Assembly: GCF_030013595.1 (NCBI RefSeq)
Contig: NZ_CP122768.1
DNA from: Escherichia coli
Lineage (GTDB): Bacteria > Pseudomonadota > Gammaproteobacteria > Enterobacterales > Enterobacteriaceae
Length of the DNA: 64,000 nucleotides
Strand: one strand, 5' to 3'
The notes under the pieces were generated by a model that saw only the letters and a program-made list of their open reading frames with translations, was not told the origin of the DNA and did no database searches. Shown one piece after another: positions 38,026 to 64,000 of this stretch (positions within the stretch are counted from its first letter, which is position 1; each line of letters starts with the position of its first letter). The position numbers and the translations under genes were made by a program.

Positions 38026-38059
38026 CTATAATCGCGGGGCTTCGTTTTTCAGGGATAAC
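38026..38059 (+). terminator. Terminator after ykgJ (GCCCCGC ... GCGGGGC + T-run)
   Basis: Stem-loop with TTCGTTTTT. Confidence 0.55.
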
Positions 38060-38241
38060 AAAACCCGAAACTTCTTCCATCTGCCAGCAACAATGCCTCT
38101 TCCTCTATAGTGTTCTCCGGATCTACAGCATCCTGAAGTAGCGCGATGTACTCATTGGCTATCTGCATCAGAAAGTTAAAAACAATGTTTTTAACCTATA
38201 AAAATGGCGCTTTATTTGCGCCATTTTTATCATTCAATGCA

Positions 38242-44197: not shown

Positions 44198-44240
44198 TAT
44201 CGCCTTGTGTAACTTATTCAGCAACGCGCGCCTCGCCGGA

Positions 44241-45434
44241 CTAAAGCGCACCGGCCTTCTGGCGTGCGGTAACAAAGGTCAGTACGCCAGCGCAAAGGAG
44301 CAGCACGCTACTCATAGCAAACGTGCTCTGCCAGCCAAGGCGGTCAAACACAATGCCTCCTGCCGTTGATCCAAGGGCGATGGCGAGCTGAATCACCGCG
44401 ACCATGAGCCCGCCTCCGGCTTCGGCGTTGTCAGGCAACGTACGCGCAATCCATGTCCACCATCCGGTTGGCGCGGCGGTGGCCAGCATGCCCCAGAGTC
44501 CTAACAGCAGCGAGACCGTCCAGACGTGATGCCCGGTAAGCATCAGACCGATGGCAATGACGGCCATCAGTCCGGGTATGGCCATCAGCGTGGGGTAGAA
44601 TTTTCTGTTGAGAAATGCCGAAACAACCAGCGTGCCAATAAAACCGGCCACGCCGATAATCAGCAAAATCGACGACAAGCCTAAGGAATTAACCCGTGTC
44701 ACCGACTCCAGAAACGGGCGCACATAGGTGAATAGCGCAAACTGCCCCATGAAAAACAGGCCACAAGCTATCATGCCGACCACAACCATGCGGCGGCTAA
44801 ATAAGCGGAATACCGCGCCACATGAAGTGTGGCTTTTATTCGCATCCATGCTTGGCAGGCTGATGCACTGCCAGATAAAGGCGACAACCGCGATGGGCAC
44901 CAGGCACAAGAAAGCGCCTCGCCATCCGACCGTAGCCCCCAGATAGCTTCCCAGCGGTGCGGCCACGACCGTCGCCAGCGCATTACCGGCGTTGAAAATT
45001 GCCAGCGCACGCGTGACCTGATGCTGCGGCACCAGACGAATCGCCGTTGCCGCTGACATCGACCAGAATCCGCCAATAGCCACACCAATCATCGCACGAC
45101 CGACCATATACATCAGATAACTGGAAGCCAGCGCAATAATAAGCCCCGATACGGCCATCAGAACCGTCATCCCCAGCAGCAGGAACTTACGATTCATCTT
45201 TCCAGCTAGCGTTGAAAGCGTCAGGCTGGTCAGAACCGCCAGCGCGCCGGAGATAGCAATCCCCTGCCCTGCCAGCCCCTCCGTCACGCCTAAATCGCGG
45301 GTAATCGGCGTGAGCAGGCTGACGGGCATAAATTCAGAAGCAATCAGCACAAACACGCACAGGGTCATGGCAAAAATACCGCCCCAGTATGCGCGCTGAT
45401 GATGAGGTGATAGTGTTTGGCTTAGTGTCGACAT
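44241..45434 (-). CDS. MFS transporter (397 aa)
   Basis: About 12 hydrophobic segments, MFS-like motifs. Confidence 0.8.
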   Translation of the reverse strand: MSTLSQTLSPHHQRAYWGGIFAMTLCVFVLIASEFMPVSLLTPITRDLGVTEGLAGQGIAISGALAVLTSLTLSTLAGKMNRKFLLLGMTVLMAVSGLIIALASSYLMYMVGRAMIGVAIGGFWSMSAATAIRLVPQHQVTRALAIFNAGNALATVVAAPLGSYLGATVGWRGAFLCLVPIAVVAFIWQCISLPSMDANKSHTSCGAVFRLFSRRMVVVGMIACGLFFMGQFALFTYVRPFLESVTRVNSLGLSSILLIIGVAGFIGTLVVSAFLNRKFYPTLMAIPGLMAVIAIGLMLTGHHVWTVSLLLGLWGMLATAAPTGWWTWIARTLPDNAEAGGGLMVAVIQLAIALGSTAGGIVFDRLGWQSTFAMSSVLLLCAGVLTFVTARQKAGAL

Positions 45435-45509
45435 AGTGAAATTTCACAAAGATCAGGATAAAAGCCACCAGCCTATGGCCGATGGCTTTGCATCAATTCA
45501 GGAGAGGTT

Positions 45510-46646
45510 TTATTTCAGTTTGGTCTGGAAAAATTGTTCGAACTTCGCGAAAGGTATTTTTCCGGCCACGTTATCGTACAGGTCCACGTGATTTGCCCCT
45601 GGTACCACCACCAACTCTTTGTCGTTACTGCCAACCGCCTTGTAAGCATCTTCAGCAAAATAACGTGAATGCGCTTTCTCACCGGTCACAATCAGCGTCG
45701 GAATGGTGATTTCACTGGCGTAGCTCAACAGCGGCATATTCATAAATGACAGCGGCATCGTTGCCGTCCACGCCCCGGTAGAGTTAACGGAACGTTCGTG
45801 GAAGCCGCGCGGCATGCGATAGTAGTCAAAGAACTCTTTCAGTACCGGATGAGGATTTGCCGGCAGCGTTTCTGGCAGAATGCGCTCGCCCGCACTGACC
45901 TTGCCGTTGCTGTCGACATTAATATCATGACCACCGTGAGCGAACGTTCCGCTCTTCGCATCCTTCCAGCGCTGTTCATTCAGATATTGCAGAACAGCAC
46001 GACGGTCGGCGGTAGAATAACGGTCTTTGCCATCCCCCACACCATGACCCATCGCCCGGCTCATGTCATACATCACGCTGGTAGCTACCGCTTTAACGCG
46101 GGTATCCATCGCTACGTCGTTCAGCGCCATGCCGCCCCAGCCACAAATACCGAGCAGCCCGATACGGTTGCGATCTACCTCTTTTTGCAGCCCTAAGAAA
46201 TCCACCGCCGCGCTGAAATCTTCAGTGTTGATATCCGGTGAGGCGACGTTTCGCGGATAGCCGCCGCTTTCCCCGGTGTAAGAAGGATCGAACGCCAAGG
46301 TAACAAACCCTCGTTCCGCCAGCGTCTGCGCATACAGGCCGCTGGATTGCTCTTTCACCGCGCCAAATGGCCCACTGACCGCAATCGCCGCCAGCTTGCG
46401 ATCGCCACGGTCTTTAGGCAGGTAAAGATCGCCCACTAAGGTGATGCCATATCGGTTCGGGAACGAGACTTTACGGTGATCGACTTTCTGGCTCTCGGCG
46501 AACGTTTTATCCCATTTATCTGTCATGGACACAGGGGCATTAGGATTGGTTGAATCAGCATAACTCATTGTCGTGACTCCACTTAATGATGCGAAAAGCA
46601 GCATGGTCGGCATCGCGGTTTTTAGCGTGCGGGTGAAGGCTTTCAT
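45510..46646 (-). CDS. Secreted alpha/beta hydrolase, dienelactone hydrolase-like with Cys nucleophile (ORF track start 46667)
   Basis: Signal peptide; GICGWGG nucleophile-elbow variant. Confidence 0.65.
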   Translation of the reverse strand: MKAFTRTLKTAMPTMLLFASLSGVTTMSYADSTNPNAPVSMTDKWDKTFAESQKVDHRKVSFPNRYGITLVGDLYLPKDRGDRKLAAIAVSGPFGAVKEQSSGLYAQTLAERGFVTLAFDPSYTGESGGYPRNVASPDINTEDFSAAVDFLGLQKEVDRNRIGLLGICGWGGMALNDVAMDTRVKAVATSVMYDMSRAMGHGVGDGKDRYSTADRRAVLQYLNEQRWKDAKSGTFAHGGHDINVDSNGKVSAGERILPETLPANPHPVLKEFFDYYRMPRGFHERSVNSTGAWTATMPLSFMNMPLLSYASEITIPTLIVTGEKAHSRYFAEDAYKAVGSNDKELVVVPGANHVDLYDNVAGKIPFAKFEQFFQTKLK

Positions 46647-46832
46647 AAAAATCCCCATAAAAAACAACAGAGAGATACAGGTTTCCGACGGACAACGCTG
46701 CGGTGCTTTGCTTTGATGGGGTCATTATAGTGAGCAGAATTAGTGCTGATTAGGGGGCGATTAATGCTAAGATTAATACCATATTGTTATAAATTAATGT
46801 GGAGATTGCCGGCATGAAGGGGGGATGTTTCA

Positions 46833-47717
46833 ATGGCGAAAAGGGAGAACTACAACGAGCTGTACCTGTTTATGCAGGTGGTGCGAGAAGGCAGCTTTAC
46901 CGCAGCGGCTCAGCGGCTGGGTCTTGCTCAGTCAGGAGTCAGCCGTTCTGTTCGCGAGCTTGAAGAAAGGCTGGGCGTCCAGCTGCTAGTGCGCACCACG
47001 CGTAAACTGTCGCTGACACAAGCAGGCGAGCAGCTCTACCAGAAGACGGCATCTGGATTTGAAATGTTAGATCTTGGGCTTGCCACGCTGGCGCACTATC
47101 GAGAGACGCCCTCCGGCACGGTGCGTATCAATGCCAGCCAGCACGCGATTGATAAATGCCTGCTGCCAAAGCTGGCGGTATTTAAACAGAGATATCCTGA
47201 TATCCGGCTTGAACTGATAAATGAGAGCCGGTTCGTCGATATCATCGAGGAAAGATTCGATGCAGGTGTCCGCCTGGGGCCTGAAGTCGGCCAGGGTATG
47301 GTCGCGGTACGCATCACGCCCGATATGGAGATGGCAATTGTGGGGACTCCGGAACATTTTCGTCGCTATGGTTTTCCGCAAACCCCGGCGGATTTAAAGG
47401 CGCATCCCTGTATCGCCTATCAGTTTGCCGACGGCAGCGTATACCAGTGGGAACTCAATCAGGATGATAAAAAAATCACTCATCGCCCTGAAGGGCAATG
47501 GGCCCTATCCGACAGCTATATGGAAGCAGAAGCCGCCCGGCTGGGCCTCGGATTGGCCTATGTTCCTGTTGAACTGGTCGCGGATGATTTAGAACACGGT
47601 AAGCTTATCAGGGTGTTGCAGCGTTACAGCCTGCGAATGGAGGGATTGTTTCTCTATTACCCTCATCGCAACGTCTCCCCCGCCCTGCGGATGGTCATTG
47701 ATACATTGAAAATCTGA
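46833..47717 (+). CDS. LysR-family transcriptional regulator (294 aa)
   Basis: N-terminal HTH LYLFMQVVREGSFTAAAQRLGLAQSGVSRSVRELEERL. Confidence 0.8.
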   Translation: MAKRENYNELYLFMQVVREGSFTAAAQRLGLAQSGVSRSVRELEERLGVQLLVRTTRKLSLTQAGEQLYQKTASGFEMLDLGLATLAHYRETPSGTVRINASQHAIDKCLLPKLAVFKQRYPDIRLELINESRFVDIIEERFDAGVRLGPEVGQGMVAVRITPDMEMAIVGTPEHFRRYGFPQTPADLKAHPCIAYQFADGSVYQWELNQDDKKITHRPEGQWALSDSYMEAEAARLGLGLAYVPVELVADDLEHGKLIRVLQRYSLRMEGLFLYYPHRNVSPALRMVIDTLKI

Positions 47718-47930
47718 ACGTTAACAACGACCGACTCTTCACTGTGCAAAATTGTGTCAGGTAGTCCCTCTGCGTTCAATTCCAGGGTCTGTACAGTCTG
47801 CTTTGAGCGAGAAAGAGGGGACTATCCAGCAATGGAGATCACCCAAAAGAAAAAACCACCTGGCTCCCTCGACAACCTTCATCCAGGCATTTAGCCTCAA
47901 TCAACATTTTTATATCTGTCAGGTTACTTC

Positions 47931-48215
47931 ATGATGAAAACTGATCATTATCGTTGTTTTTGTTGCAATAGTAGAATACGCGTATTTATTCCTCCATCTC
48001 TATTAATAACGGCAATAAACTGTTCACTTCACTGATATTTAAAATATGTATCCTTTTCAAGCTGTTCAGCGGCGTAAGAAAAAGTATTAATTATGAATTC
48101 GATGATTTAACCATATCTGTCTGATTGGTAATCATCCGTGATTAATGCTGGTCTATTGATTACGCCAGCATTAACCGCTTAGGGATGTATTCTTCCTGTT
48201 CATATAGCCCTCGAA
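47931..48215. repeat. Degenerate paralogous copy of the ykgR - ykgO-downstream flank (copy 1 at 28612-29600) with ykgM/ykgO coding part deleted
   Basis: Aligned by eye: shared ...attaataacggcaataaactgttcacttca... and terminator-like ccagcattaa segments. Confidence 0.55.
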
Positions 48216-48301
48216 AAAGAGAGAAAATAAAACTGTGTCCAATATTAATTTACCACTCCAGACCGAAGCATCGGTGGGATTAGCAGAATGATCTGCGTCT
48301 G

Positions 48302-48517
48302 ATGTTGAGGCTGGCTCTTGCCGGCGCAGGCATAACAATTGCCACTCAGGAAACTTTCAGGCCATATATTGAAAGCGGTAAGCTTGTATCGCTGCTTGAT
48401 GACTTTCTTCCACAATTTCCGGGCTTCTATCTGTATTTCCCACAGCGTCGCAATATTGCACCAAAGCTCCGCGCCCTGATTGACCACGTCAAGGAATGGC
48501 GGCAGCAATTGGCTTAA
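48302..48517 (+). pseudogene. yagP: LysR-family C-terminal fragment (yagP-like remnant)
   Basis: 71-aa ORF matching LysR substrate-binding C-terminus only. Confidence 0.5.
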
Positions 48518-48644
48518 ATGTCTGCACCTGCACTGCCTGATGTCAGAACAGTATTTTGATGAATTGCCAGGGTTACAATGGCACAAATACGGCACAGGAG
48601 GAAAATGTGGTGTAATTGAATGTGAGGTAACTACTTGATTTAAA

Positions 48645-48692
48645 TGGTGCCGATAAGAGGAGTCGAACCTCCGACCTTCGCATTACGAATTA
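48645..48692 (-). other. tRNA-Thr(CGU) 3' fragment (anticodon loop through CCA); att-site remnant at island boundary
   Basis: Reverse complement reads ...ctaattCGTaatgcgaaggtcggaggttcgactcctcttatcggcacca; 5' half lacks D-arm and acceptor pairing. Confidence 0.6.
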
Positions 48693-48855
48693 GCGAGACC
48701 AGTGATTCAAGATGTTCACATCCGTTTCAGCATACAATAAAAAATATATAAAAATCAACAAAATAGACATAAATGCAGTATCAAGATGTTTCGCCTTGTT
48801 TCTGATGATATCATGTTAAATGTGTACCCCACTGTGTACCCAAAAGGCTGAAGAT

Positions 48856-50175
48856 ATGACTTTTACTATTACACAAGACAGACAATTGGCTTCATTGACC
48901 GTTACTAAAGAAGAAAAAGAAATCTTATTTGCTGTAAAATCTAAAGCTGGGGGAGGACTCTTTATACGCGTTCGTTATGGTAGCGACAATAAAAGCTGGA
49001 TTTATCGTTATCGAATAGCTCAAAAGCCAGCTAAATTAACACTAGGTAGTTACCCTGCCATGGGATTAGCTCAAGCTCGTAAAGCTCATGCGGATGCAAT
49101 TGAATTAGTAAGAAAAGGTATAGATCCTCGTCATATTAGAAAAAATGAAAAACAAAAAAATGAACAAATGATTATTTACTCTGAATTATGGAAAGATTGG
49201 ATAGAATTCAGAAAGACAAGTAAACCAATTAGCACCAGACCCCTTGCAGATTATGAAGGGACTTATCACCGCCACCTTGAAAAAGCATTAGGAAACCTTC
49301 GCATTGACGAACTTACCAAAAGCGTTATTTTTGAACATCTCAGTAATGTAAGAAAAACCAGTTCTGAAGCAGTTCGTAAAGGATTAATTATTCTAAATAT
49401 GACTCTTGATCATGCCAACTTACAGGGTATGCTTGAGCATAACCCAGCACGACTGCTCAAACCAGCAATGTTTGGTGCATCGATGAATAAACCTCGCGAG
49501 CGATGGCTTCCTGAGAATGAACTCCGGATGCTATGGAAGGCTTTGGATGATGCTACTGTTGGAGGAGGCTCCATTGCATCTGGTGGCTATGGAATTTCCT
49601 CTAGTGTGGTATTATCTCATTCTGTCGCAAATGCACTCCGTTTGATTATTTTCACAGGAGTGCGCCGCTCTGAAGCGGCACAAATGCGCTGGGATCAAAT
49701 TAATGGAGAGCGTTGGACCATACCAGCCACTAAAAATGGGAAAAGCCATATTGTTACTTTACATCCGTATATGCTTTCTTTAATAAAAACACAACGTGAA
49801 TTCACTGAAGGTGCATATGTTTTTGGTTCTACTAGCAAACCTGGCTTTCCCATCACAAATGACGCTCTGACTCGCGCGTTAGAAAGGGTTCGCTCTAAGT
49901 ATCTAGCCGAACTTACTCCATTTTCTCCTCATGATCTGCGTAGAAGTGTTGCGACTGGATGCGCTGAATACCTTGATGCTCCAGAGCGCCTAATAGAGTT
50001 ACTGTTAAATCATGTACCCAAAGACCGTTTAATACGAACATATCAAGTCGGACAACAAGCTGAAAAATTAAAAAATTTATTTATAGAATGGGGGAATTTT
50101 ATTATGAATAACGTCATTACTGTGCAGCAGAATGCTCCGGATAATGTTATTCATATAAAATTTGGGAACAGATGA
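48856..50175 (+). CDS. Tyrosine integrase of CP4-type island (IntF-like; alternative start 48820)
   Basis: Integrase domain (R...HDLRRS...Y); adjacent to tRNA fragment. Confidence 0.8.
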   Translation: MTFTITQDRQLASLTVTKEEKEILFAVKSKAGGGLFIRVRYGSDNKSWIYRYRIAQKPAKLTLGSYPAMGLAQARKAHADAIELVRKGIDPRHIRKNEKQKNEQMIIYSELWKDWIEFRKTSKPISTRPLADYEGTYHRHLEKALGNLRIDELTKSVIFEHLSNVRKTSSEAVRKGLIILNMTLDHANLQGMLEHNPARLLKPAMFGASMNKPRERWLPENELRMLWKALDDATVGGGSIASGGYGISSSVVLSHSVANALRLIIFTGVRRSEAAQMRWDQINGERWTIPATKNGKSHIVTLHPYMLSLIKTQREFTEGAYVFGSTSKPGFPITNDALTRALERVRSKYLAELTPFSPHDLRRSVATGCAEYLDAPERLIELLLNHVPKDRLIRTYQVGQQAEKLKNLFIEWGNFIMNNVITVQQNAPDNVIHIKFGNR

Positions 50176-50267
50176 TAAAAATACATGCATGGTCTGAGAT
50201 ACCCTGTCTACTCGACCATGCAGTATGGTTCAACTAAATCAGTCACAACAAGAAATGATTAGTTTTA

Positions 50268-51116
50268 TTAGATATTGTATGGGATTATTTCTGGATAATA
50301 CTTCGCAATGATGTCATTTAGCCGATCAACCAGTTCTGGTTTTCTGAACGTGATATGCGCGGAGCCCTTCTTAAAGTATCTGATGCTGAACATCTCATCT
50401 TCATAGCAGGCTTTGCCCTGAACGGAGCGGATGTGATCATCCAGCCGAATAATGATATTTTCCCGGCTGTCGGGGATCGGTTTGCCGCTGAACAGGTGCA
50501 GCATTCTTTCCAGGTCGGCAAGTCGATCTGCCTGTTGCCCGGTGATAAGATGCAATCCCCACCGGTCCCACCTCACCAGATTGTTGACGATAATTTTACT
50601 GCCAAATTTACAGGGGCAATTGGTTTTGTAATCCCAGCTCAGTCCCCTGAAGACGTTGATGCCCCCACGCTCAAACACTTCATCCTTATTCTGGTGTAGT
50701 TGCTCAAACGTACTCAGTATATTCTCTTCACTGATTTCCGGAAAATTATCGTACTCCAGTGACCGGTACCATGTATCACGGGCCTGTGCATCCATTAAGG
50801 AAAGCATCCCTGAACGTTGCATCAGGTCACGCCAGATTTCACGGTCAAGGTTGCGGGTGATGGCTTTCATTGCCGTTTCAGGTTTCTCCATCAGCCAGCA
50901 ACCGCAGCGAAAATCCTGTTTCATGGCCCAGTCCGGAGCAGTTTTACCTCCAATACTTTCTGTCATTGCTGATATTTCAGCCAGTTGCCGGATAAGTGTG
51001 TCGATTTGCAGCAGTGTGCTCTTTCGTACAGCCAAAATGTGGCGGATACTGGTTGAGCAGATAACGTCCGTATGCCCGTTGACCACTTCCGGACGGGAGA
51101 TTGTGATGTCTGACAT
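50268..51116 (-). CDS. Hypothetical protein (282 aa), possibly DUF4942-like
   Basis: ORF downstream of yeeW-like gene; family assignment from memory only. Confidence 0.45.
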   Translation of the reverse strand: MSDITISRPEVVNGHTDVICSTSIRHILAVRKSTLLQIDTLIRQLAEISAMTESIGGKTAPDWAMKQDFRCGCWLMEKPETAMKAITRNLDREIWRDLMQRSGMLSLMDAQARDTWYRSLEYDNFPEISEENILSTFEQLHQNKDEVFERGGINVFRGLSWDYKTNCPCKFGSKIIVNNLVRWDRWGLHLITGQQADRLADLERMLHLFSGKPIPDSRENIIIRLDDHIRSVQGKACYEDEMFSIRYFKKGSAHITFRKPELVDRLNDIIAKYYPEIIPYNI

Positions 51117-51200
51117 TATCGGTTTCCCTTTTGGTTTATAAACGAAAACGCCAGCCCTGTTCAGGCTGACGTCAGTGGAATGAAGTATGGTGAGTGATAT

Positions 51201-51623
51201 TTACCGCTTCTGGTGCAGAAGCTGCAGATGACGAAGAGTACGGACATCCTCCCGGGCCTGTTCGATACAGGGCAACAGTGCTACCGAATCCGTTTTATCC
51301 TCATCGTTGTCAAAGATAATTCCCGATTCGCAGTCGATATTGTCCTGCAGCCACGCAATGAGGATATCCAGCGCTGTTTCAGTGGTTAATGGCATCACGC
51401 TCTGTATCACTGTATTGTCTTCCGGCAACTGATGAGGGCTGGCAGAAGTCGCCGGTGTTTCGGTAGCGTCACGTTCATTCACCACGCGGAGTGAATAACC
51501 GTTTTCAGCGACTTTGTTAATCAGTTCAGCGAGCTCAATACCATCGACGTCAACGACAATGCGCCCCATGTTCAGCGCCTGCGCATTAATGCTGTCGGCT
51601 TCCAGCGTCAGGGCCAGTTTCAT
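51201..51623 (-). CDS. YeeW-like protein (140 aa)
   Basis: Position immediately downstream of CbtA-like toxin; acidic. Confidence 0.5.
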   Translation of the reverse strand: MKLALTLEADSINAQALNMGRIVVDVDGIELAELINKVAENGYSLRVVNERDATETPATSASPHQLPEDNTVIQSVMPLTTETALDILIAWLQDNIDCESGIIFDNDEDKTDSVALLPCIEQAREDVRTLRHLQLLHQKR

Positions 51624-52000
51624 TGTTTCGCCCCCGGATGTTTACCCAGGGTAATGTTATTTACCGTTCTGTAGTTGTCGCGTGTCATCAGGCCGGTTGC
51701 CCGGCGTGCCCGGAGGATATCAATACTGTTTATTAACTGAGAACGGGTACAGGCGCTGAATCCCGGCTGGTCGGTACGTACCAGTGCGTATTTTTCAACG
51801 AGAAAGTTCACCGCATCGCACAGTGAAATGCCTGCCTCAATATGCTGCTCAATCACACGTTCATCAGCGAACGGTGTGTCATTCAGCGTAAGGCCGTAGT
51901 GCTGATCCAGCAGTCGGGTGAGCAGTGTCTGCCAGATTTCAACCGGAGACGGGCGTGAACTGGCCGCCTGCCCGGGTAATACAGGTAATGTTTTCATACT
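51620..52000 (-). CDS. CbtA/YkfI/YeeV-family type IV toxin (about 126 aa; ORF track extends to 52138)
   Basis: MKTLPVLPGQAASSRPSPVEIWQTLLTRLLDQHYGLTLNDTPF matches CbtA family N-terminus. Confidence 0.75.
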   Translation of the reverse strand, partial: SMKTLPVLPGQAASSRPSPVEIWQTLLTRLLDQHYGLTLNDTPFADERVIEQHIEAGISLCDAVNFLVEKYALVRTDQPGFSACTRSQLINSIDILRARRATGLMTRDNYRTVNNITLGKHPGAKQ

Positions 52001-52086
52001 GAAGATTTTCCTGAAATGCAGAGATGAAAAATGGAAAAGTGGCGTGGTGAAAGCACCAGGCCGGAGCAGAAGGTTATTCTGGAGAG

Positions 52087-52455
52087 TTACTTTTTCGTTT
52101 CGGGCGTCGGATAAACAGCCATATAAACGTAGCCACAACTGCCGAGGGTGTCGGCTTCGCAGGTCAGCCCTTTTGCATACAGCGTGACGGTATGCTGATG
52201 GCGGGGATTCAGTTCACCGCTGGTGAGCATGAGCTCCAGTTGTTTCATCAGCAGCGGAAAGGCCTGGTCTAGGTGGTACGAATCCGCGTCGCTGAACCGC
52301 CCTCTGATACCGGCGCGGTCGGCAAGGTAATGCAACCGGTTGCCTTCCTGTACCAGACGGGCACCAAAACAGGGCGTCACGGTGCAGGGCAGTCCCCACC
52401 AGGTGCGGTCGTTATTGTCGTCGGGAAGCGTTGTCCCGGGGAGTGTGTCTGACAC
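52087..52455 (-). CDS. CbeA/YafW/YeeU-family type IV antitoxin (122 aa)
   Basis: Family pattern; immediately upstream of toxin. Confidence 0.75.
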   Translation of the reverse strand: MSDTLPGTTLPDDNNDRTWWGLPCTVTPCFGARLVQEGNRLHYLADRAGIRGRFSDADSYHLDQAFPLLMKQLELMLTSGELNPRHQHTVTLYAKGLTCEADTLGSCGYVYMAVYPTPETKK

Positions 52456-52534
52456 GATAAAATCCTCACAGAAAATTGGTTAAGAATGGTCCGGTGGTGG
52501 CGATAATTCTGCTCTTCTGAATGCCCTTCCAGAC

Positions 52535-52756
52535 TCAGTTCAGGGTGACGCTCATCAGCCGGACATACGGACCAAAACTGTCCTTCCGGCGTTCTGCAAA
52601 CACAGCCAGCACACCGGGAATATCCTGTACTTCACGGCCGGTATATGTATCCGTGCTACCGTGCCAGCGGTATTTACCGGTACAGAACGGAAAAAGACGG
52701 GATGCAGGATGCTGACGGTGAATACGCATGGCTTCACCACGGGTGATGATTTTCAT
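52535..52756 (-). CDS. DUF987 protein (YkfH/YeeT-like, 73 aa)
   Basis: Position and size in CP4 module. Confidence 0.6.
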   Translation of the reverse strand: MKIITRGEAMRIHRQHPASRLFPFCTGKYRWHGSTDTYTGREVQDIPGVLAVFAERRKDSFGPYVRLMSVTLN

Positions 52757-52842
52757 GAGAATAGTCCTCCTGAATGTGAAAGTAAGAAACAGCTGAGAAA
52801 GAGAAACTGAAGTGATATGAAGGTGATTGTGACGGTGACGGG

Positions 52843-53334
52843 TTAAAGCAGACCGTGTTCCGCAAAGGAGAAAACCTGGCTGCCACCGATTATCAGATGG
52901 TCCGGTACCCGGATATCCACCAGGGCCAGTGCCTGTACCAGACGCTCAGTGATAAGGCGGTCTGCCTTGCTGGGGGTGACTTCACCGGACGGGTGATTGT
53001 GCGCCAGCACCACGGCAGCGGCATTGTGGTACAGGGCGCGTTTAATCACCTCCCGGGGATGGACTTCTGTGCGGTTGATGGTGCCAGTGAAGAGGGTTTC
53101 ACCGGCAATCAGCTGATTCTGGTTGTTCAGATACAGCACCCGGAACTCTTCCCGCTCCAGTCCCGCCATGTTCAGTATCAGCCATTCCCGTGCCGCATGC
53201 GTGGAGGTGAAGGCCACGCCGGGTTCATGAAGATGGCGGTCCAGGGTTTTCAGGGCCCGTTGAATGAGGCTGCGCTCGCCGGGCGTCATCTCTCCGGGCA
53301 GAAAGGAAAGCTGTTGCATTGTGCTTCTCTCCAT
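52843..53334 (-). CDS. RadC-like JAB-domain protein (YkfG/YeeS-like)
   Basis: JAMM motif HNHPSGEVTPSKAD. Confidence 0.8.
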   Translation of the reverse strand: MERSTMQQLSFLPGEMTPGERSLIQRALKTLDRHLHEPGVAFTSTHAAREWLILNMAGLEREEFRVLYLNNQNQLIAGETLFTGTINRTEVHPREVIKRALYHNAAAVVLAHNHPSGEVTPSKADRLITERLVQALALVDIRVPDHLIIGGSQVFSFAEHGLL

Positions 53335-53820
53335 TCAGTCGATGATGCGCATAATGGCGCTGCATTCCGGATGCTGCAGGGCGTAATCCCGCAGCCGGTA
53401 ATAATGGACCGTCATGGCATAACACTCCGTACGACAGGCATGATGACTGTACGTCATCAGACAGGCAGCAATGCCGGCGGCTTCCGGGCTCATTTCAGCG
53501 CGGTTGCCGTTCATGACATTGAACAGTACCCATATTTCGTCATCATCGTCATCCGGTTCGGGTGCCATAAATGCCCCGCCGTTGTTCAGAGTGTACAGAT
53601 TCCAGATACCACCGCAGTAGTCTTCGCTCAGACGGTCCATCCAGCCGAAAACACGGGGCTCCAGGGTCACCCACTGTGGAATGAGACCAAAGTGCTGCGG
53701 CCAGAAGCTGATGCGCTGTTCATCAGGGACTATGGTGGCAACCAGCTGAGGCTGGTCATTCCCTGATGCAGCGGTTACGGAAACAGAAGGAGTGGTGGAA
53801 TTATGCGAGACGGTTGTCAT
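53335..53820 (-). CDS. Anti-restriction protein (YafX/YfjX-like, 161 aa)
   Basis: Position in CP4 module; acidic stretch PEPDDDDDE. Confidence 0.6.
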   Translation of the reverse strand: MTTVSHNSTTPSVSVTAASGNDQPQLVATIVPDEQRISFWPQHFGLIPQWVTLEPRVFGWMDRLSEDYCGGIWNLYTLNNGGAFMAPEPDDDDDEIWVLFNVMNGNRAEMSPEAAGIAACLMTYSHHACRTECYAMTVHYYRLRDYALQHPECSAIMRIID

Positions 53821-53911
53821 GAGATTATTCCTTATAAAAAGTAAATGAATGGAAGAAACCCCGGGGGAAGGGACAAACGTGAGTCAGAACTGCGCTTTCA
53901 GGGAAAAGGCA

Positions 53912-54730
53912 TCAGCACATGCTCTCCAGCAGCGTTTCAGCCATTACCCACAATGCGCGATTGAGCTTAATGTCGGTGTCGATGCTGTGAATGGCACGGG
54001 TATGGATACGTTTCCCTCTGGCACTGCGACCGGAAATTCCGCCTTTCAGCATATTCTCCTGAATGGTCTGATAAGCACTCCACAGGTCCTTACCGTAATC
54101 CTCCCGGCGTCGTGGTGTCAGAATGTCGGCGGTGGTGACGGGCTGATGTTCGTCACCATAACGGTAAGTCAGTGCCGCCTGTGCCAGCGCCTGGCGTGCC
54201 GGTGGCGGCAGAATCAGCGACTGCATGGCATCACGCTTTTCCTCAATCCGCTCAAACACGCCCACCACCTCGTAAGCCCCTTCAATAACTTTCTCCACCA
54301 CATTTCCCCGGTGTGGAACACGCAATTCTCCCAGAGACTGACCGCAGACCAGTCCATTGGTACAAATGGCACGAAAATATCCGGGTAACATCTGGTAGCT
54401 GGATGAACCGTCATGGGAGTTGAGCAGAATAATTTCAGGGACATGCTGACCGGTTATCTGCCCGGCCCGCCGCAGACGCAGCATGTGTTTTGTGTATTCC
54501 CGGCGGCTCTGGTCGCGCACGCGGGTCTGGCAGGCAAAGAACGGCTGAAAGCCTTCCTGCTGCAGATTTTCCAGGACGGTGATAGTGGGAATGTACGCAT
54601 AGTGTTCACTTCGGGAGGTATGTCGGTTTTCCCCAAAAATACTCGGTACATGGCGCATCAGTTCTTCGTGTGTCAGCGGACGGTCACGGCGTATCTGGTT
54701 TACATGACCAAAACGACTCGCTAATCGCAT
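53912..54730 (-). CDS. YafZ/YfjQ-family protein (DUF932-like, 272 aa)
   Basis: Family pattern from memory; CP4 module position. Confidence 0.6.
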   Translation of the reverse strand: MRLASRFGHVNQIRRDRPLTHEELMRHVPSIFGENRHTSRSEHYAYIPTITVLENLQQEGFQPFFACQTRVRDQSRREYTKHMLRLRRAGQITGQHVPEIILLNSHDGSSSYQMLPGYFRAICTNGLVCGQSLGELRVPHRGNVVEKVIEGAYEVVGVFERIEEKRDAMQSLILPPPARQALAQAALTYRYGDEHQPVTTADILTPRRREDYGKDLWSAYQTIQENMLKGGISGRSARGKRIHTRAIHSIDTDIKLNRALWVMAETLLESMC

Positions 54731-54849
54731 TATTTGCTCCTTATGAATGAGTTAGCGGTATAAATGAATAAATATCCTCCGGCATAGCCGGAGGTTTTTC
54801 AAATGCGCCTGTAAGGCTCTGTTACCAGCCGCGCCCTAACAGGCGCATA

Positions 54850-55525
54850 CGATCTGACATTTGCATTCAACTTCGTTACTTACGGCCCGTAAACGGGCTG
54901 CCCGGATATGGAATCGATAACTGCTCCCCCATTTTATCCTCTTCAAGCTGGTGCTTTATGTAGTCCTGTATCTTCGCCGTGTTCTTACCCACCGTATCGA
55001 CATAGTACCCTCGGCACCAGAACTCCCTGTTTCTGTATTTGAATTTCAAATCCCCAAACTGCTCGTAAAGCATCAGACTGCTTTTCCCTTTCAGATATCC
55101 CATAAAGCCGGATACGCTCATTTTGGGTGGGATTTCCACAAGCATATGGATATGATCTGCGCAGCACTCTGCTTCCAGAATCCGTACGCTTTTCCACTCA
55201 CACAGCTTTCTCAAAATACTGCCTATCGCCCTACGCTTCTCTCCGTAAAACGCCAGTCTTCGGTATTTCGGCGCAAAAACTATGTGATATTTACAGTTCC
55301 AGCGGGTGTGCGCTAAGCTCTTTTCGTCCCCCATTGGGACCCCCTTTTGATTTCTTGTTTGACACTTGCAGTTGCCAGACCGCAAGGTGTTTTAACAAAT
55401 CAAAAGGGGTTTTAATAACTGGCTCAAAGCTGAAAGCTTTCCGGAACCCCCAGCCTAGCTGGGGGTTTTCTGTGCACAAAAAGCCGCGTCTCCCGGAGAA
55501 GACGCGGCCTGATGGGTGAAATGAA
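54850..55525. mobile_element. IS200/IS605-family insertion sequence (approximate ends)
   Basis: Y1/HUH transposase ORF flanked by structured ends; hairpins at 55340-55520. Confidence 0.65.
54876..55334 (-). CDS. tnpA: IS200-type transposase TnpA (about 152 aa)
   Basis: HUH motif HIHMLVEIPP and catalytic Tyr region YYVDTVG. Confidence 0.8.
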   Translation of the reverse strand: MGDEKSLAHTRWNCKYHIVFAPKYRRLAFYGEKRRAIGSILRKLCEWKSVRILEAECCADHIHMLVEIPPKMSVSGFMGYLKGKSSLMLYEQFGDLKFKYRNREFWCRGYYVDTVGKNTAKIQDYIKHQLEEDKMGEQLSIPYPGSPFTGRK

Positions 55526-55530
55526 GACGT

Positions 55531-55800
55531 TTATTGCCTGAGAATTCCCTCACTGGCGAGATACGGATTTAGCTGTTTTCCGGCATCAGGTTCAAAATTC
55601 CAGTACCGCCAGCGCAACTGACCTTCAGCATTACGGATAACCAGCCGGAAATGCGTTCCCTGGTCATCTTCAATAAGCACATTGCGGTAAGCTGTTGTGA
55701 CGGCAACCGCCTGTTCGCGTGAGAAAGGGCCTTCGGGTAATAAACGTGATGTACAACCCGGCATATCTGTTGCTCCCTGAAAGTAAAAGGCCCCGGTCAT
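55531..55800 (-). CDS. Hypothetical small protein (89 aa) downstream of Ag43
   Basis: ORF only. Confidence 0.4.
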
Positions 55801-55834
55801 GATGACCGGGGCCTGAAGGGGAGTGACCTGATTA

Positions 55835-58681
55835 TCAGAAAGTCACATTCAGCGTGGCCTGACCGTTATAACCTTCAGCGCTGCTGCCGCTGACGCTGTG
55901 GGCATAACCGGCCTGAACGCCCAGGGTGATATTTTCCCGGACACGGGCTTCCAGTCCGGCCTGCAGGTCCAGTGACGTGCCATTCTGGGATGGTGAGAAC
56001 GTCATGTTACTGCCGGCTGCGGCTGTACCCATGCTCATGTCACCCCGGGAGCTGAAGGTGCGGATAACAGAAGGCTGTACCCACCAGTTCACCGGCAGTT
56101 CACGCACACTGTGTTTTGCACTGTCGCGCAGGGTGTCACGGGATGAGGTGCCTTCACCAAAGGTCATATCGTTGTGGCTGCCCAGACGGAAACCGGCACG
56201 CACATGTTGTGCACTGCCATGCCCGAACTTCACATAACCGGCGTTATCCTGGCCGTCATCCAGGGAAAGTCCCTGCCAGGTATACTGCAGTTGTGGCTCC
56301 AGCATCAGGTTGTCAGTGATACTGAAGGGCAGACCGGTTTCCAGTGAGCCCAGCCAGCCCCAGCCCCGGGCGCGGAAGTCGTTATTGTCCGATGACGCTT
56401 TCATGCTGTGGCGGGTTCCCTGTGCCACAATGTCAGCCCACAGGCCGGAGGACGTGTGTGTCAGATTCAGGTATCCGCCCAGGCTGCCGGCATCATCCCG
56501 GACCGTGCCGGCACGGGAGCCGTCATCATCCTTAACATCAACGGAAGAATGGCCTGCAGCGCCATATACCCCCGTGGTCACAGACATACCGGCAACCTCT
56601 GTTCTCAGCAGGTCACCCTCCAGACGGACGAAGCCATAGCTGCCGCTGCTTTCCGGCGTGGCCCCACGGGCAATACCGCCGTTGTTATCGTGACCGAGAT
56701 GACCGCCCTGAATGCTGAGACGGACGCTGTTATTTTCACCGTTTACACCGGTCTGATGGCTGCGGGAGCCTGCCAGAATCCGGTCATAGTCCATTGCCTG
56801 TGTCAGCATGGAGGCATACAGGGGGACTTCAGCACGATAAGCATTTTCACTGCGCAGGTACCAGTCTTCATCGCTGTCACGGTTCAGGGTGTAGTTAAAG
56901 ACACCGGCCTGAAGCGGGCGACTCAGGGCAAACGCACCTTCTTCTGTGGTGGCACCATTCTGTGCATCCACAACCCGGATACCCTGTCCGGAGGTTGCCA
57001 CCCCGAGGTTACTGTTTCCGACATTTGTGAACGCAAGCCAGGTTTTGCCGGTTGCCTGACCACCATTAATCACCAGCTGGTCAGGGGCATTGCTGCCATC
57101 AAGGCGAACACGCATATTGATGGTGCCACCCTGACCGGTGAGGTTACTGGTGGTCAGTTTATGGAACGTTACCGGGGCGTCGCCTTTTGCAACAGCACGG
57201 CTCAGGACGGCATCCTGTGTCGTCTGATTATCAAAGCGAATCTCCCCTGCGTTAACAATATCGCCGGTACTGACCACATCACCATTCAGTACCATGCTGG
57301 CGCCTTTACTGAGCTGTGTTCTGCCACTCAGACTTCCCCCGGCAGCCAGCATCAGTGTCCCACGATGTCCGACAGTGGTGTTGCTGGCCTGTCCCCCGGC
57401 ATTAACCGTAAAGCTACCGCCATTTTCCAGCAGCAGGCCGCTGGCCTGACCGGATATACCATCAATACTGAACTTACCGCTGGCATTGGTCCCCTCAACA
57501 GTGGCACCACTGTCTGCAATCAGGGCACCACCGGATGTCATGGTGACACCTGTTGCCTTACCACCGGCAGACACTGCCAGGGTACCGCCGTCATCCACCC
57601 GTGTTTTCTGCGCTGAATGGCCCTCCAGTACATCCAGGCGACCGCCGGACTCCAGAACAAGGCCGTCAGCCTTACCGTTTTCCACCGTGAAATTGCCCAG
57701 ACGGTTGCTGCCGGTGACGGTTGCCGCCGTACTGGTGACCAGTGCGCCCCCCTGCTTCAGGGTGACATTCGTGGCTGTACCACCGGCGTTCACCTGCAGC
57801 TTGCCTTTCTGGTTAACGGTGGTGAAATCCGCCAGACCACCTTCCTTGATAATCTGCCAGCCGTCACTGTTTACAACAGTGCCAGACGCCGTACCGCCGT
57901 TGTGCACATACTGGTACCCCCCATTCAGCGTGGTATCCAGTGCGTGACCATGTACAGTCTGGTCGCCGCCGGCATAAACCACAGTGGTATTTACCGTTCC
58001 TTCAGCAGCCACAATCTGACGACCATTTTTATTGATGGTGGTGCGTACGGCATCTCCGTAGACGGTCTGCCCGGTATCACCATTTTCTGCATCCGGTCCC
58101 CCTTCCGCGCCGGTATTCACAACCGTGTCGGTTGCCACTGCGCCGGATTTGACGGCCTGCCAGCCCTTCTCATTAATGACAGTACCCGTTGCAATCCCGC
58201 CTTCATGTACCCACTGCTCACCGCCGTTCAGAGTGGTGTTCACTGCCTGCCCCTGAAGGCTCTGTCCGCCTCCGGCACTGATAACCGTGTCTGAAACGCT
58301 TCCTCCGGCATTCACTCTCTGAAGACCACCACCGGTGACAGTAGTGTTGTTGGCGATACCGCCATTTTGTATCCATTGTCCGCCGGTATTGGCCTCGTTA
58401 TCCGGCCCATACTCCAGACCGGTACTGATGGTCATTCCGTTGGCCGTACCGAAGACAATCTGGTTGTCATGATTTTCCAGTGTTCCGCCGCTCACGGTTT
58501 CTCCCGTCTGTACAACCGTGTCAGCAGCCAGTGCCGGGACTGATGTGACAGCAGCAAGAGACAGCGCAACCGCCACACCGGCGCGTTTTCCCCGTGAGCG
58601 GGCCAGTTCGGAGGTCACCACCAGGGTGCCCGTAATGTGATTCCATACCAGCCTGTAGCTGGTGTTCAGATGTCGTTTCAT
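55835..58681 (-). CDS. flu: Antigen 43 self-associating autotransporter adhesin (about 948 aa; ORF track start 58756)
   Basis: [35 protein letters not shown]... extended signal peptide; repetitive beta-helix passenger; C-terminal beta-barrel. Confidence 0.85.
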
Positions 58682-58898
58682 CAGCTTTTCCTTACAGAGG
58701 GTGAATAAAAAAGCCGGTACCCACAAATATGGGTACCGGCAGGTACAAAACAGCATGGTCAGATAAAGTGGTTTTTCCCGGACATAAATGCTTCTCCTCT
58801 CTCATCCGCCAGAGAAGTATCAGTCCGTTGTGTGCAATTCCGTTCTGCATGATGAAGAGATTCAGCTGCCTTTTCGCAGACCATTAACCACTATAAAC

Positions 58899-58934
58899 GA
58901 TCGATGGTAACGATCGATACATGTTTTATCGATC
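58899..58934. promoter_or_regulatory. Three GATC (Dam) sites at 58899, 58912, 58931 in Ag43 upstream region: OxyR/Dam phase-variation switch
   Basis: cGATCGATggtaacGATCGATacatgttttatcGATCGtttt, 220-250 bp upstream of flu start. Confidence 0.65.
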
Positions 58935-59052
58935 GTTTTATTCTATTAACAGCAAGGCAGTCACGCAAGAGAAAGAGGTGGGTATGAGGTGTTTGTGTCA
59001 TGTTTTCAGTTGGTTAACGCAATGTAATCAGGCATTTCCCCTGGCAGAGTGT

Positions 59053-59925
59053 TCAGAAGAAAATCCAGTTCCATACAGCGCGGGCAACAGAGACCACCGT
59101 GTCACGGACGACACGCAGAACCGTACGAGCCACAGAGGCAATACAGACGCTCTCCGCCGTGTCAAATATCCGGTCCACCGCACCGGTAAACTGTTCACGG
59201 GCCTGCCCCCGGACAGATTCCGTGCACAACTCGTCCTGCAGGCGGGTCATCAGGGGACTGGCGGCATGGTCGGGAAGTGCTGTCATGAGCGCACTGACCA
59301 GCGTATCCAGTTCCCAGCCGGTGCGGGCCGATACGGCCACAACCGGATGTACGGGCCGGAACAGCCGGAATACCGCATCTGTTTTCTCACGAATGTTCTG
59401 TTCCTGTGCGGGAGAAGGCTGAATACCTGCCATATCCCATTCATGGCAGGGCTCCGTTTTGTCGGCCTGCGTCACCACAAACAGCACCTGCTGATGTCCC
59501 CGGTGCAGGATGTGTCGCCAGAAATACTCATCCACAGACAGGGCACGGTCATCGGCTTTAATCAGCCACAGTACCAGGTCAAGTTCAGGCAGAATGTCAC
59601 GGTACAGGGCTTCATACTCTGCATCCCTGTCCCGGCTCTCGCCCACCCCGGGTAGGTCAGTGATAACCATGCTGTGACCATGGCCACTCAGACGGAAGCG
59701 CTGCGCTTCCCGGGTGCCGGCGTGAACATCACTGACCGGGGTGACCTCCCCCTGAAACAGTGCATTACAGAGTGAGGATTTACCGGCCCCGCTTTTCCCC
59801 ATAATGCCAATCACGGGTTCGTGGCTGGTGAGTTTGCGCAGATGTTCCAGGATGTGACGGGAAAGTGAGTAAGGAAGAGAAGAAAGTGGTTTTTCAATTG
59901 CCTCAATGGCATCAGACGGATTCAT
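59053..59925 (-). CDS. YeeP/YkfA-family GTPase (about 290 aa; ORF track start 59964)
   Basis: P-loop GKSGAGKSSLCNALF; DLPG G3 motif. Confidence 0.75.
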   Translation of the reverse strand: MNPSDAIEAIEKPLSSLPYSLSRHILEHLRKLTSHEPVIGIMGKSGAGKSSLCNALFQGEVTPVSDVHAGTREAQRFRLSGHGHSMVITDLPGVGESRDRDAEYEALYRDILPELDLVLWLIKADDRALSVDEYFWRHILHRGHQQVLFVVTQADKTEPCHEWDMAGIQPSPAQEQNIREKTDAVFRLFRPVHPVVAVSARTGWELDTLVSALMTALPDHAASPLMTRLQDELCTESVRGQAREQFTGAVDRIFDTAESVCIASVARTVLRVVRDTVVSVARAVWNWIFF

Positions 59926-59954
59926 ACATGTATTCCCGGTGAAAAAAGACAAAA

Positions 59955-59980
59955 CCCCGCGCACCGGAAAGGTGGCGGGG
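59955..59980. other. GC-rich hairpin CCCCGCGCACC-ggaaa-GGTGGCGGGG; on minus strand followed by T-run
   Basis: Perfect inverted repeat seen directly. Confidence 0.4.
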
Positions 59981-60255
59981 GATTCACGGAGATAATATCT
60001 GTCTGAAATTATTTAGGATGCAGGTATCTTCAGATAATCGCACCCCCAGAATTTTATTCTTAATAGTTGAATAGTGGTATTTGGTTTCCCTGAGAGAATA
60101 TAAAGATGAATCATGCTGTATTGAGTTTGATTCTATTTGTACTGAGACAGGTATCTTCATGATTATAATCAAAAGCCGGGTGGATTGGTCTGGCGCTAAT
60201 TATTTTCTCGAATAAACTCACTAATTATTGTAACCATCCCAAAGGAGATGATTTT

Positions 60256-62400: not shown

Positions 62401-64000
62401 ACAATAAAATCAAGAATGTACCTTCCGTTTCCGTTACTTATGCACGTAATGGCGCATCAACCAAAGCTAATGTGCTTGGGATGCGTCCTATGCAGGAGAG
62501 AGCTTATGAAAAGCGCGGCGAGCAGTACTTGCTTATCAAATCACCACCGGCATCAGGTAAAAGCCGCGCACTGATGTTCATAGCACTCGACAAACTCGAA
62601 AACCAAGGGATTAAACAGGCAATCATCGTTGTGCCGGAAAAATCTATCGGCGCGAGTTTCAACGATGAACCGCTATCGCAGTTTGGATTCTGGGCTGATT
62701 GGCATGTCGAACCTAAGTGGAACCTATGCAACGCGCCCGGTAACGACAACGGGGGCAAGGTAAGATCTTTTGGCTCTTTTCTTGAAAGTAGCGACAAGGT
62801 GCTTGTTTGCACACACGCAACCTTTCGCTTCGCGGTCGATGCCTATGGCGTAGAAGCGTTTGACGATCGCCTGATCGCCGTCGATGAATTCCACCATGTG
62901 TCAGCTAACCCGGATAACAAGCTTGGTCAGCATCTGGGGCAGTTCATCGCGCGTGATAAGACACACATCGTTGCCATGACCGGCTCCTACTTCCGTGGTG
63001 ATGCGGAGGCCGTTTTGGCTCCTCAGGATGAGTCCAGGTTCGATACCGTCACCTATACCTACTACGAACAACTCAACGGTTACGAATACCTCAAGCAACT
63101 CGATATCGGCTACTTCTTTTACAGTGGCTCCTACGTCGATGACATCCTTAATGTCCTCGATCCTGACAAAAAGACCATTATCCATATACCCAACGTCAAT
63201 TCGCGCGAGAGCACGAAGGATAAAATCAAGGAAGTGGAGCATATTCTTAGCGAGCTTGGCGATTGGCAAGGTGCGGATCCTGCGACTGGTTTCCAGCTAG
63301 TCAAATGCCTCGATGGCCGAATGTTGCGTATAGCTGATCTGGTGGACCCAACTAGTCAAGGCAAGATTCAGGAAAGCCTTCGTGCTGCAGAAATGAAGAC
63401 AGACCGTGACTATGTAGACATCATTATTGCACTTGGTATGGCGAAGGAAGGTTTTGACTGGATTTGGTGCGAACATGCGCTGACCGTTGGCTACCGTGCC
63501 AGCCTGACTGAGATCGTGCAGATTATCGGTCGCGCTACTCGCGACGCGCCGGGTAAAAACCGCGCAAGGTTTACTAACCTGATCGCCGAGCCGGATGCTG
63601 TTGAGGGGGCTGTCACCGAGGCAGTCAACGATACCTTGAAAGCCATCGCGGCAAGCCTGCTGATGGAGCAAGTATTAGCTCCGCGCTTCGAGTTCAAGCC
63701 TAAGAACCCAGAAAGTGGTCCGGCCCCAGGCTTTGATTATGGTGATGGTGGATATGACCCGGATAGCTGTAATTTTGGTGTTAATGAGCAGACAGGGACG
63801 TATCAAATCGAGATTAAGGGACTTGCCGAGCCCAGGAGCAAAGAGGCGGCACGCATCTGCCAGGAAGATTTAAACGAAGTGATCGCGGCCTTTGTGCAGG
63901 ATAAGCCCGCCATCGAACGAGGCCTGTTCGATGAAGAGCTGATTCCTGAAGAGTTAACTCAGGTTCGTATGGGTAAGATCATCAAAGAAAAGTATCCTGA
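62397..64000 (+). CDS. SF2 helicase/translocase, 5' partial (first about 534 codons, continues past window end); translationally coupled to the methyltransferase (ATGA overlap)
   Basis: Motif I SPPASGKSRAL, motif II VDEFHH, motif III MTGSY, motif VI QIIGRATRD; not in ORF track because no stop in window. Confidence 0.7.
   Translation, partial: MNNKIKNVPSVSVTYARNGASTKANVLGMRPMQERAYEKRGEQYLLIKSPPASGKSRALMFIALDKLENQGIKQAIIVVPEKSIGASFNDEPLSQFGFWADWHVEPKWNLCNAPGNDNGGKVRSFGSFLESSDKVLVCTHATFRFAVDAYGVEAFDDRLIAVDEFHHVSANPDNKLGQHLGQFIARDKTHIVAMTGSYFRGDAEAVLAPQDESRFDTVTYTYYEQLNGYEYLKQLDIGYFFYSGSYVDDILNVLDPDKKTIIHIPNVNSRESTKDKIKEVEHILSELGDWQGADPATGFQLVKCLDGRMLRIADLVDPTSQGKIQESLRAAEMKTDRDYVDIIIALGMAKEGFDWIWCEHALTVGYRASLTEIVQIIGRATRDAPGKNRARFTNLIAEPDAVEGAVTEAVNDTLKAIAASLLMEQVLAPRFEFKPKNPESGPAPGFDYGDGGYDPDSCNFGVNEQTGTYQIEIKGLAEPRSKEAARICQEDLNEVIAAFVQDKPAIERGLFDEELIPEELTQVRMGKIIKEKYP

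Follow-up and report, generated by a model that had tools for sequence, protein, structure and literature searches.

What does a truncated tRNA-Thr gene beside a tyrosine integrase gene tell us about the island that it borders, and does the side on which the integrase stands betray a rearrangement? The window analysed here is a 64,000-nt stretch of the Escherichia coli chromosome, and its gene order runs ykgR, ecp, ykgJ, yagU, paoABCD, an MFS transporter, a hydrolase, a LysR regulator, a partial ykgR and a partial LysR gene, after which come the tRNA piece, the integrase gene (int) and the island. The first-pass annotation of this DNA had seen in the piece a tRNA-Thr 3' fragment marking an island boundary, had placed int on the unexpected side of it, and had suggested a mosaic or tandem island that had undergone a rearrangement. 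We compared the junction with unoccupied sites, with near-identical islands in other strains and with more distant relatives of the integrase. The features around the junction are the following:

48302-48517, plus strand: yagP-like, truncated LysR-type gene of the native flank; strain C4 and the empty-site strains have a partial LysR substrate-binding protein annotated at this position.
48518-48644, no strand assigned: native chromosome (backbone) downstream of thrW, collinear with and identical to the empty-site loci L004 and L005.
48645-48690, minus strand: displaced native 3' part of thrW, tRNA-Thr(CGU) positions 31-76, very probably the attR core; assigned by identity with the empty site.

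A displaced thrW 3' half at the island boundary

On the minus strand, positions 48645-48690 read ATTCGTAATGCGAAGGTCGGAGGTTCGACTCCTCTTATCGGCACCA, with the anticodon CGT at 48685-48687, the CCA end at 48645-48647 and the T-stem pair G50:C64 at 48671/48657. The piece starts at tRNA position 31, the base with which the 5' strand of the anticodon stem ends. What had been described as a fragment of about 48 nt, from the anticodon CGU to CCA, is indeed the 3' part of a tRNA-Thr on the minus strand, but its length is 46 nt, and positions 48691-48692 are not derived from the tRNA. The 46-mer is present as a single copy in the window with up to three mismatches allowed, and none is expected by chance (100 shuffles). 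Where the missing 5' half belongs, 21 of 31 nt differ from thrW, in keeping with the earlier statement that this half had been replaced by unrelated sequence. Re-inspection of the site for an intact tRNA left the truncation standing: ARAGORN finds no tRNA in the whole 64-kb window, and Rfam has no tRNA at the gathering threshold in the window and none at E<=10 around 48645-48690.

The origin of the piece emerges from strains in which the site is unoccupied. In UPEC69 and M7424 the order is paoD-MFS-hydrolase-LysR-(partial ykgR, partial LysR)-thrW-proA, and window positions 48600-48690 are 100% identical to the 3' half of thrW and 45 nt downstream of it in these two genomes. Since the empty site holds an intact thrW with an identical 3' half and flank, the fragment is the chromosomal 3' half, still on its native flank, and all DNA rightward from 48691 is inserted; the fragment does mark the island boundary, as had been proposed. 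Islander-type evidence for an integrated island is thus at hand in the form of an unoccupied site with joined flanks (UPEC69, M7424), a displaced 3' fragment identical at 46 of 46 positions to thrW of the empty-site strains, and a tyrosine integrase gene within the island (48856-50175). From these sequence comparisons, the 46-nt piece is very probably attR, the outer, tRNA-distal junction of a genomic island integrated at thrW, and the outer boundary of the island is fixed to the base, at 48690/48691. The fragment would be an inert scar and, by prediction, also one half of the excision substrate. As a feature it is known and ordinary: the attR scar of a known type of thrW island.

Everything to the left of 48690/48691 is native backbone, the LysR and ykgR remnants included. 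These remnants, a partial copy of ykgR and a partial LysR gene at about 47750-48520, have the full LysR gene on one side and the tRNA piece on the other; as they are found in the empty-site strains too, they are old native scars downstream of thrW and stand outside the island. The backbone downstream of thrW comes in two variants (window about 44240-48290 compared with L002 4670-5060 and K-12 yagP). One, shared by the window with C4 and the empty-site strains, carries an MFS transporter, an alpha/beta hydrolase and a full LysR regulator over about 4.2 kb; in the other, seen in K-12 and VTB97022v, a truncated yagP follows directly after paoD. The G+C content, 0.51-0.59 in the flank, drops to 0.36-0.46 across int.

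The other end of the island and the crossover interval

The window stops at 64000, 15 kb into the island, so that its own thrW and attL were deduced from near-identical relatives (99% identity over int and att). Strain C4 shares the window's backbone, with 99.6% identity over int and att, and its intact thrW stands 80 kb on, beside proA; in VTB97022v the intact thrW lies 75 kb from the fragment. Both strains have thrW and the fragment on the same strand. The first-pass annotation was therefore right to place int at the tRNA-distal end, the intact thrW being 75-80 kb further to the right in these relatives. Between fragment and thrW there are no extra copies of the 45-nt core in C4 or VTB97022v, and the window holds no second att copy within 48691-64000.

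The two tRNA copies of C4 differ at exactly two bases, which are paired in the T stem. Its attR has G50:C64, the empty-site allele, and its intact thrW has U50:A64, with island sequence from about ten bases past CCA; it follows that the 3' half of the working tRNA comes from the island. The attR of VTB97022v, by comparison, has U50:A64 and adjoins the flank variant that lacks the 4.2-kb MFS-hydrolase-LysR segment. By these alleles, which 3' half stands at attR depends on the backbone and not on the island (G50:C64 in the window and C4, U50:A64 in VTB97022v). The first difference between attL and attR is at tRNA position 50, which confines the crossover to the 19 nt of positions 31-49:

48672-48690, minus strand: strand-exchange interval, 19 nt, tRNA positions 31-49 including the anticodon loop; attL, attR and attB are identical here.

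Within this interval the exchange point may well be the anticodon loop, by analogy with the anticodon-centred att sites of the Islander collection, where this class comprises 2083 islands (PMC4383910).

Compensated T-stem changes distinguish native from island-borne tRNA-Thr 3' halves (window 48657 and 48671; L030 7912-7987; the Aeromonas att regions). In Aeromonas three T-stem variants occur, GCAGG/CCTGT, GTAGG/CCTAT and AGGAG/CCCCT (L018/L019/L026-L028), and the chimeric tRNA of L019 has gained a G5-U68 wobble in the acceptor stem. As the T-stem differences are compensated, integration exchanges the T stem of the host tRNA for a different, still paired version.

The integrase and the island-side arm of attR

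Between the tRNA piece and the island genes lie the following elements:

48691-48855, no strand assigned: island-side arm of attR (P arm), AT-rich, from the core to int; delimited by alignments and by the 21/31 mismatches to the 5' half of thrW.
48833-48841 and 48821-48829, minus strand: two direct GGGTACACA repeats, candidate arm-type Int sites, 15-35 bp upstream of the int start.
48856-50175, plus strand: tyrosine integrase of 439 aa that reads away from attR; PF13356 (67.5 bits) and PF00589 (60.5 bits) in Pfam.

The open reading frame at 48856-50175, earlier assigned as an integrase on the 5' side of the fragment, is confirmed in that role: its Arm-DNA-bind_3 and Phage_integrase domains score above the curated cut-offs of Pfam, and the catalytic residues R270, H359, R362, H386 and Y396 are invariant in the alignment. 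Judging by its sequence, the integrase is apparently intact.

The repeat pair upstream of the int start reads GGGTACACAgtgGGGTACACA (48821-48841), and in C4 and VTB97022v a matching pair, GGGTACACAcaGGGGACACA, follows the intact thrW at a distance of about 56-75 nt. The 68% E. coli paralogue of the integrase has GCGTACTT twice at both island ends (L015), CP4-6 has TGTAAC...TGGTGTAAGTAAAT at each end, and the Aeromonas islands have GTACCCCTC/ATACCCCTC beside int. The motif pairs shared by the P and P' arms thus vary with the integrase type. Their shared 10-mers were reached in 5/500, 0/500 and 0/500 shuffles, and arms of different types have at most one 10-mer in common and in most comparisons none; the window-type arm pair is the weakest case, with one shared 12-mer that is reached in 7/500 shuffles. 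The sharing of motifs suggests that the repeat pairs are candidate arm-binding sites of Int. It can further be argued that, because both ends of the 75-80 kb region carry the motif of the distal integrase, the region is bounded by the attL and attR of a single element. In a consensus scan, promoter-like sites were not in excess and the P arm had none that could serve int; terminator-like sites were absent.

A motif resembling GATGAAACAnnnTGAAA recurs about 15-40 bp to the island side of the core (window about 48695-48730) throughout the family, from E. coli to Aeromonas. Its position suggests that it may be a core-proximal protein-binding site, for Int (core-type), IHF or an excision factor.

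The position of int across the integrase family

The integrase family is well populated. A scan of genome contigs with the single protein returned no relatives, and a rescan with a 16-sequence alignment returned seven loci. The survey as a whole comprises 23 loci with a complete family integrase, in seven genera (Escherichia, Salmonella, Citrobacter, Pectobacterium, Brenneria, Dickeya and Aeromonas). They are the window type of E. coli (the window, C4, VTB97022v and 536), the 68% E. coli paralogue (L008-L011, with L015 being the L011 genome with annotation), and the loci of Salmonella (L012-L014), Pectobacterium (L016, L020, L021 and L025), Brenneria (L022), Dickeya (L023), Citrobacter (L024) and Aeromonas (L018, L019 and L026-L028).

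All 23 have a tRNA-Thr 3' piece about 110-240 bp upstream of int and on the opposite strand, with unrelated sequence where the tRNA 5' half belongs, and in none of the 23 does int stand beside an intact tRNA. The tRNA breaks at a position common to the K-12 CP4-6 boundary and to every family member examined. Complete single islands have the same plan: the 26-kb island of E. coli 2018-11-3CC (L015) runs fragment, int, UvrD, a type I restriction-modification (R-M) system, Zorya, YfjJ, an HTH gene and thrW, and the 7-kb island of Aeromonas (L018/L019) runs fragment, int, AlpA, primase and thrW. Contrary to what had been thought, the side on which int stands is therefore to be expected: a fragment followed by an outward-reading int is found in 23/23 relatives, and intF of K-12 CP4-6 is likewise distal. 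Nor does the layout call for a rearranged or a tandem, mosaic island, given that single islands of 7 and 26 kb are among those that share it. For annotation, this means that an int gene beside a tRNA fragment is to be expected for the family of the window integrase and for IntF, and is no sign of rearrangement.

The opposite, P4-like layout is found at the same tRNA, in tandem, for int404 in Pectobacterium L016 and for an Arm-domain remnant before vat in 536. Since both layouts occur at one tRNA, the difference belongs to the integrase/attP unit and not to the site.

One tRNA call among the relatives was rejected. At the attR of the 68% paralogue ARAGORN reports an 80-nt "tRNA-Thr" (L008-L011 9791-9870), for which Rfam gives only tRNA-Sec at 16.4 bits (E=1.4) and no match to the tRNA model, and which RefSeq leaves unannotated. 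Its anticodon falls at position 38, and the island arm GTCGATG can pair with the 3' strand of the acceptor stem. It is probably a pseudo-tRNA artefact, able to mislead island mapping.

The anti-phage cargo of these islands varies by host. E. coli 2018-11-3CC has type I Zorya with type I R-M (L015 16349-24213), C4 has DarTG, type I R-M and a CDI system (L001 42590-44010 with L007 1-320), and Pectobacterium has DarTG (L020 11392-13102) and, in L016, a Thoeris-like SIR2/TIR pair.

The CbtA-type module next to int

The island genes next to int in the window read towards it:

50268-51116, minus strand: DUF4942 gene, convergent with int, last gene of a CbtA-type module; Pfam E=1.7e-68.
51201-59964, minus strand: DUF5983, CbtA toxin, CbeA antitoxin, DUF987, RadC/JAB, antirestriction, DUF932, Ag43-type autotransporter and YeeP-like GTPase; Pfam for each open reading frame.

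The order of the module is identical in C4, VTB97022v and 536, and the int/DUF4942 junction is found in 180 E. coli genomes. In Pectobacterium brasiliense, whose Int is 78% identical, int is followed by convergent DarG, DarT and DUF4942 genes. The 272-aa gene that is convergent with the int of the 68% paralogue was considered as a counterpart and is no DUF4942 homologue; the convergent partner is thus specific to the window-type lineage and not common to the whole family. Relative to K-12 CP4-6 the CbtA/CbeA...GTPase module is inverted, as the first reading of the sequence had stated: it lies on the minus strand and at the other end of the island from ykfI...ykfA. Relative to the tRNA, it reads outward toward attR in the window as it does in 536.

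The 92-bp gap between int and the DUF4942 gene (50176-50267) holds an inverted repeat, CATGCATGGTC...GACCATGCAG, by its sequence a possible bidirectional terminator, though one on which the consensus terminator scan made no call. Homology to the DUF4942 copies of other islands ends at the 3' end of the gene (about 50287-50326). Gathering-level Rfam matches on the minus strand are IS009 (38036-38236), the Hfq-binding sRNA STnc490 (55344-55467) and IS102 RNA (58700-58936); inside the island, STnc490 separates the DUF932 gene from the Ag43 gene, and IS102 falls in the region upstream of the latter.

Alternative explanations

It might be supposed that int was first adjacent to thrW, as in P4-like islands, and that int and the CbtA module reached the distal end when a mosaic island was inverted or otherwise rearranged. 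Such a history would fit the inverted module, which sits at the other end compared with K-12 CP4-6, as well as the mosaic cargo with many IS fragments in the relatives and the fact that P4-like integrases with a proximal layout do use the same tRNA (int404 in L016, the Arm-domain remnant in 536). It is nevertheless very improbable. The layout is shared by 23/23 complete family members in seven genera, by the single islands of 7 and 26 kb and by K-12 intF, and an inversion within the island cannot set the truncated end of the tRNA at the int-side arm while its CCA end lies on the native flank. The convergent arrangement of int and DUF4942 recurs in Pectobacterium at 78% Int identity, and CP4-6, whose IntF is 25% identical to the window integrase, is the wrong reference for orientation. 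A different matter is whether the source locus is a tandem array of at least two elements sharing thrW, with int and the fragment belonging to the outermost only. Real arrays do exist at thrW: 536 has a P22/SfX-like int beside thrW and a vat island after the island of the window type, a second element abuts the fragment in L008, L009 and L016, and the window covers only the first 15 kb of its island. Yet the 48691-64000 part of the window and the whole 75-80 kb islands of C4 and VTB97022v are free of a second att copy, and the thrW-proximal end in these two strains carries an arm motif that matches the window integrase, so that we regard an array as improbable, if less so than a rearrangement. 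Even if there were one, the identity of the fragment would not change; it is joined directly to the native flank, which makes it a terminal attR whatever lies further in.

The most sceptical view would be that no integration took place, and that the piece is a decayed tRNA gene that lost its 5' half by local deletion, or a chance similarity. That no intact tRNA is detectable would agree with this. Against it stand 46 consecutive identities and an identical flank at the empty-site thrW, the lack of any match in shuffled sequence, a break at the same tRNA position as in the CP4-6 boundary and every family member examined, and the intact thrW at the other island end in relatives. The three-way comparison of attB, attL and attR excludes decay and chance, to which we give practically no credence.

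Proposed mechanism of integration and mobility

We propose that the tRNA piece owes its position to the build of attP. In the circular form, int would read outward, with a P arm carrying two arm-type repeats just upstream of its start; next would come a core matching the thrW anticodon loop, the island's own tRNA 3' half, and a P' arm with the same repeats. Exchange catalysed by Int within tRNA positions 31-49 would join the 5' half of thrW, from the chromosome, to the 3' half brought by the island. A working tRNA would be restored at attL, beyond the window, and the native 3' half would be pushed to the far end, beside the P arm and int. For the source genome, attL is predicted to be thrW on the minus strand with U50:A64, followed by TTTAAATCAATAAGTTAGATAAG...GGGTACACAcaGGGGACACA. 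Because the tRNA-like segment of attP would point away from int, int would always end up tRNA-distal; a distal int is inherent to this integrase family, and to CP4-6 IntF. Relatives have an AlpA-like HTH gene at their thrW-proximal end, and its product may help excision. The predicted junction of the attP circle, in which ...GGTCTCGCTA is joined to ATTCGTAATGCG...CACCATTTAAATCAATAAGTTAG..., had no exact match in metagenome contigs.

The same island, 99% identical, occurs in both backbone variants downstream of thrW, which implies either independent integration or transfer by homologous recombination in the flanks. The island may be mobile today, but two observations speak against it: the predicted attP junction had no match in metagenome contigs, and IS debris is abundant in the large islands of relatives (C4, VTB97022v), which may be immobile. 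Only tentatively, and without giving it even chances, we put forward a broader reading in which the family would be an undescribed, tRNA-Thr(CGU)-specific lineage with an attP reversed relative to the P4 type, co-varying arm pairs and rewriting of the T stem, and would be mobile still, given the island's occurrence in two thrW backbone variants.

Comparison with known systems

Judged by C4 and VTB97022v, the window island agrees with the tRNA-gene islands of Islander in that a regenerated tRNA gene and a displaced 3' fragment of the same orientation bracket an island with a tyrosine integrase, and with its anticodon-centred class in that the att identity extends from the anticodon loop to the 3' end. 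There is no essential difference from that class; the intact copy would lie outside the window.

CP4-57 at ssrA is an island with a P4-like integrase. Islands of this P4-like (CP4-57) type share with the window the combination of Arm-DNA-bind_3 and a catalytic domain and an int that reads away from att, and their cargo, like that of window-type islands, includes AlpA/YfjI/Gp2 and CbtA modules. They differ in layout: in P4-like islands int comes after the tRNA 3' end, on the same strand, and is tRNA-proximal, whereas in the window the tRNA piece is on the strand opposite int and turns its truncated end toward it. The window integrase is 24% identical to int404, and it scores 78.9 bits with NCBIfam PRK09692 (CP4-57-type), below the cut-off of 434.

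CP4-6 of K-12 MG1655 is closer in plan. It is annotated at 262898-297205, starting inside thrW, and intF lies 109 bp from its far end, on the strand opposite thrW and next to yagP. Window island and CP4-6 have in common the target thrW, the break point in the anticodon region, a distal int reading away from attR, a yagP-like LysR remnant adjoining int and a motif pair common to both arms. They differ in that IntF is only 25% identical to the window integrase (E=1e-17), that the arm motifs are other ones, and that the toxin-antitoxin...GTPase module of CP4-6 is thrW-proximal and in the opposite orientation. With so little identity between the integrases, CP4-6 is a different element and the wrong reference for the orientation of the module. 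A literature search on CP4-6, intF and excision returned nothing relevant, and one for papers on the PAI III536 integrase found nothing.

Parreira and Gyles, in 2003, reportedly described a VAT-PAI at thrW. The nearest known island is the thrW island of uropathogenic E. coli 536, PAI III536, entered as PAI-536-thrW (PMC7545054). In our comparison its distal integrase is identical to that of the window at 437 of 439 aa, and the order Ag43-DUF932-antirestriction-RadC-DUF987-CbeA-CbtA-DUF5983-DUF957-DUF4942, convergent with int and followed by a 45-nt tRNA piece, is as in the window. The surroundings differ: in 536 the tRNA piece abuts another element (a P4-like int remnant with vat), a P22/SfX-like int stands beside thrW, the whole forms a tandem array and the pao genes are missing, whereas the piece in the window abuts the native flank. 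The S fimbriae (sfa) and salmochelin (iro) cargo of PAI III536 would, if present in the window's island, lie beyond 64000; C4 and VTB97022v carry different cargo. By integrase and module order, the window island is of the PAI III536 type and not of the CP4-6 type.
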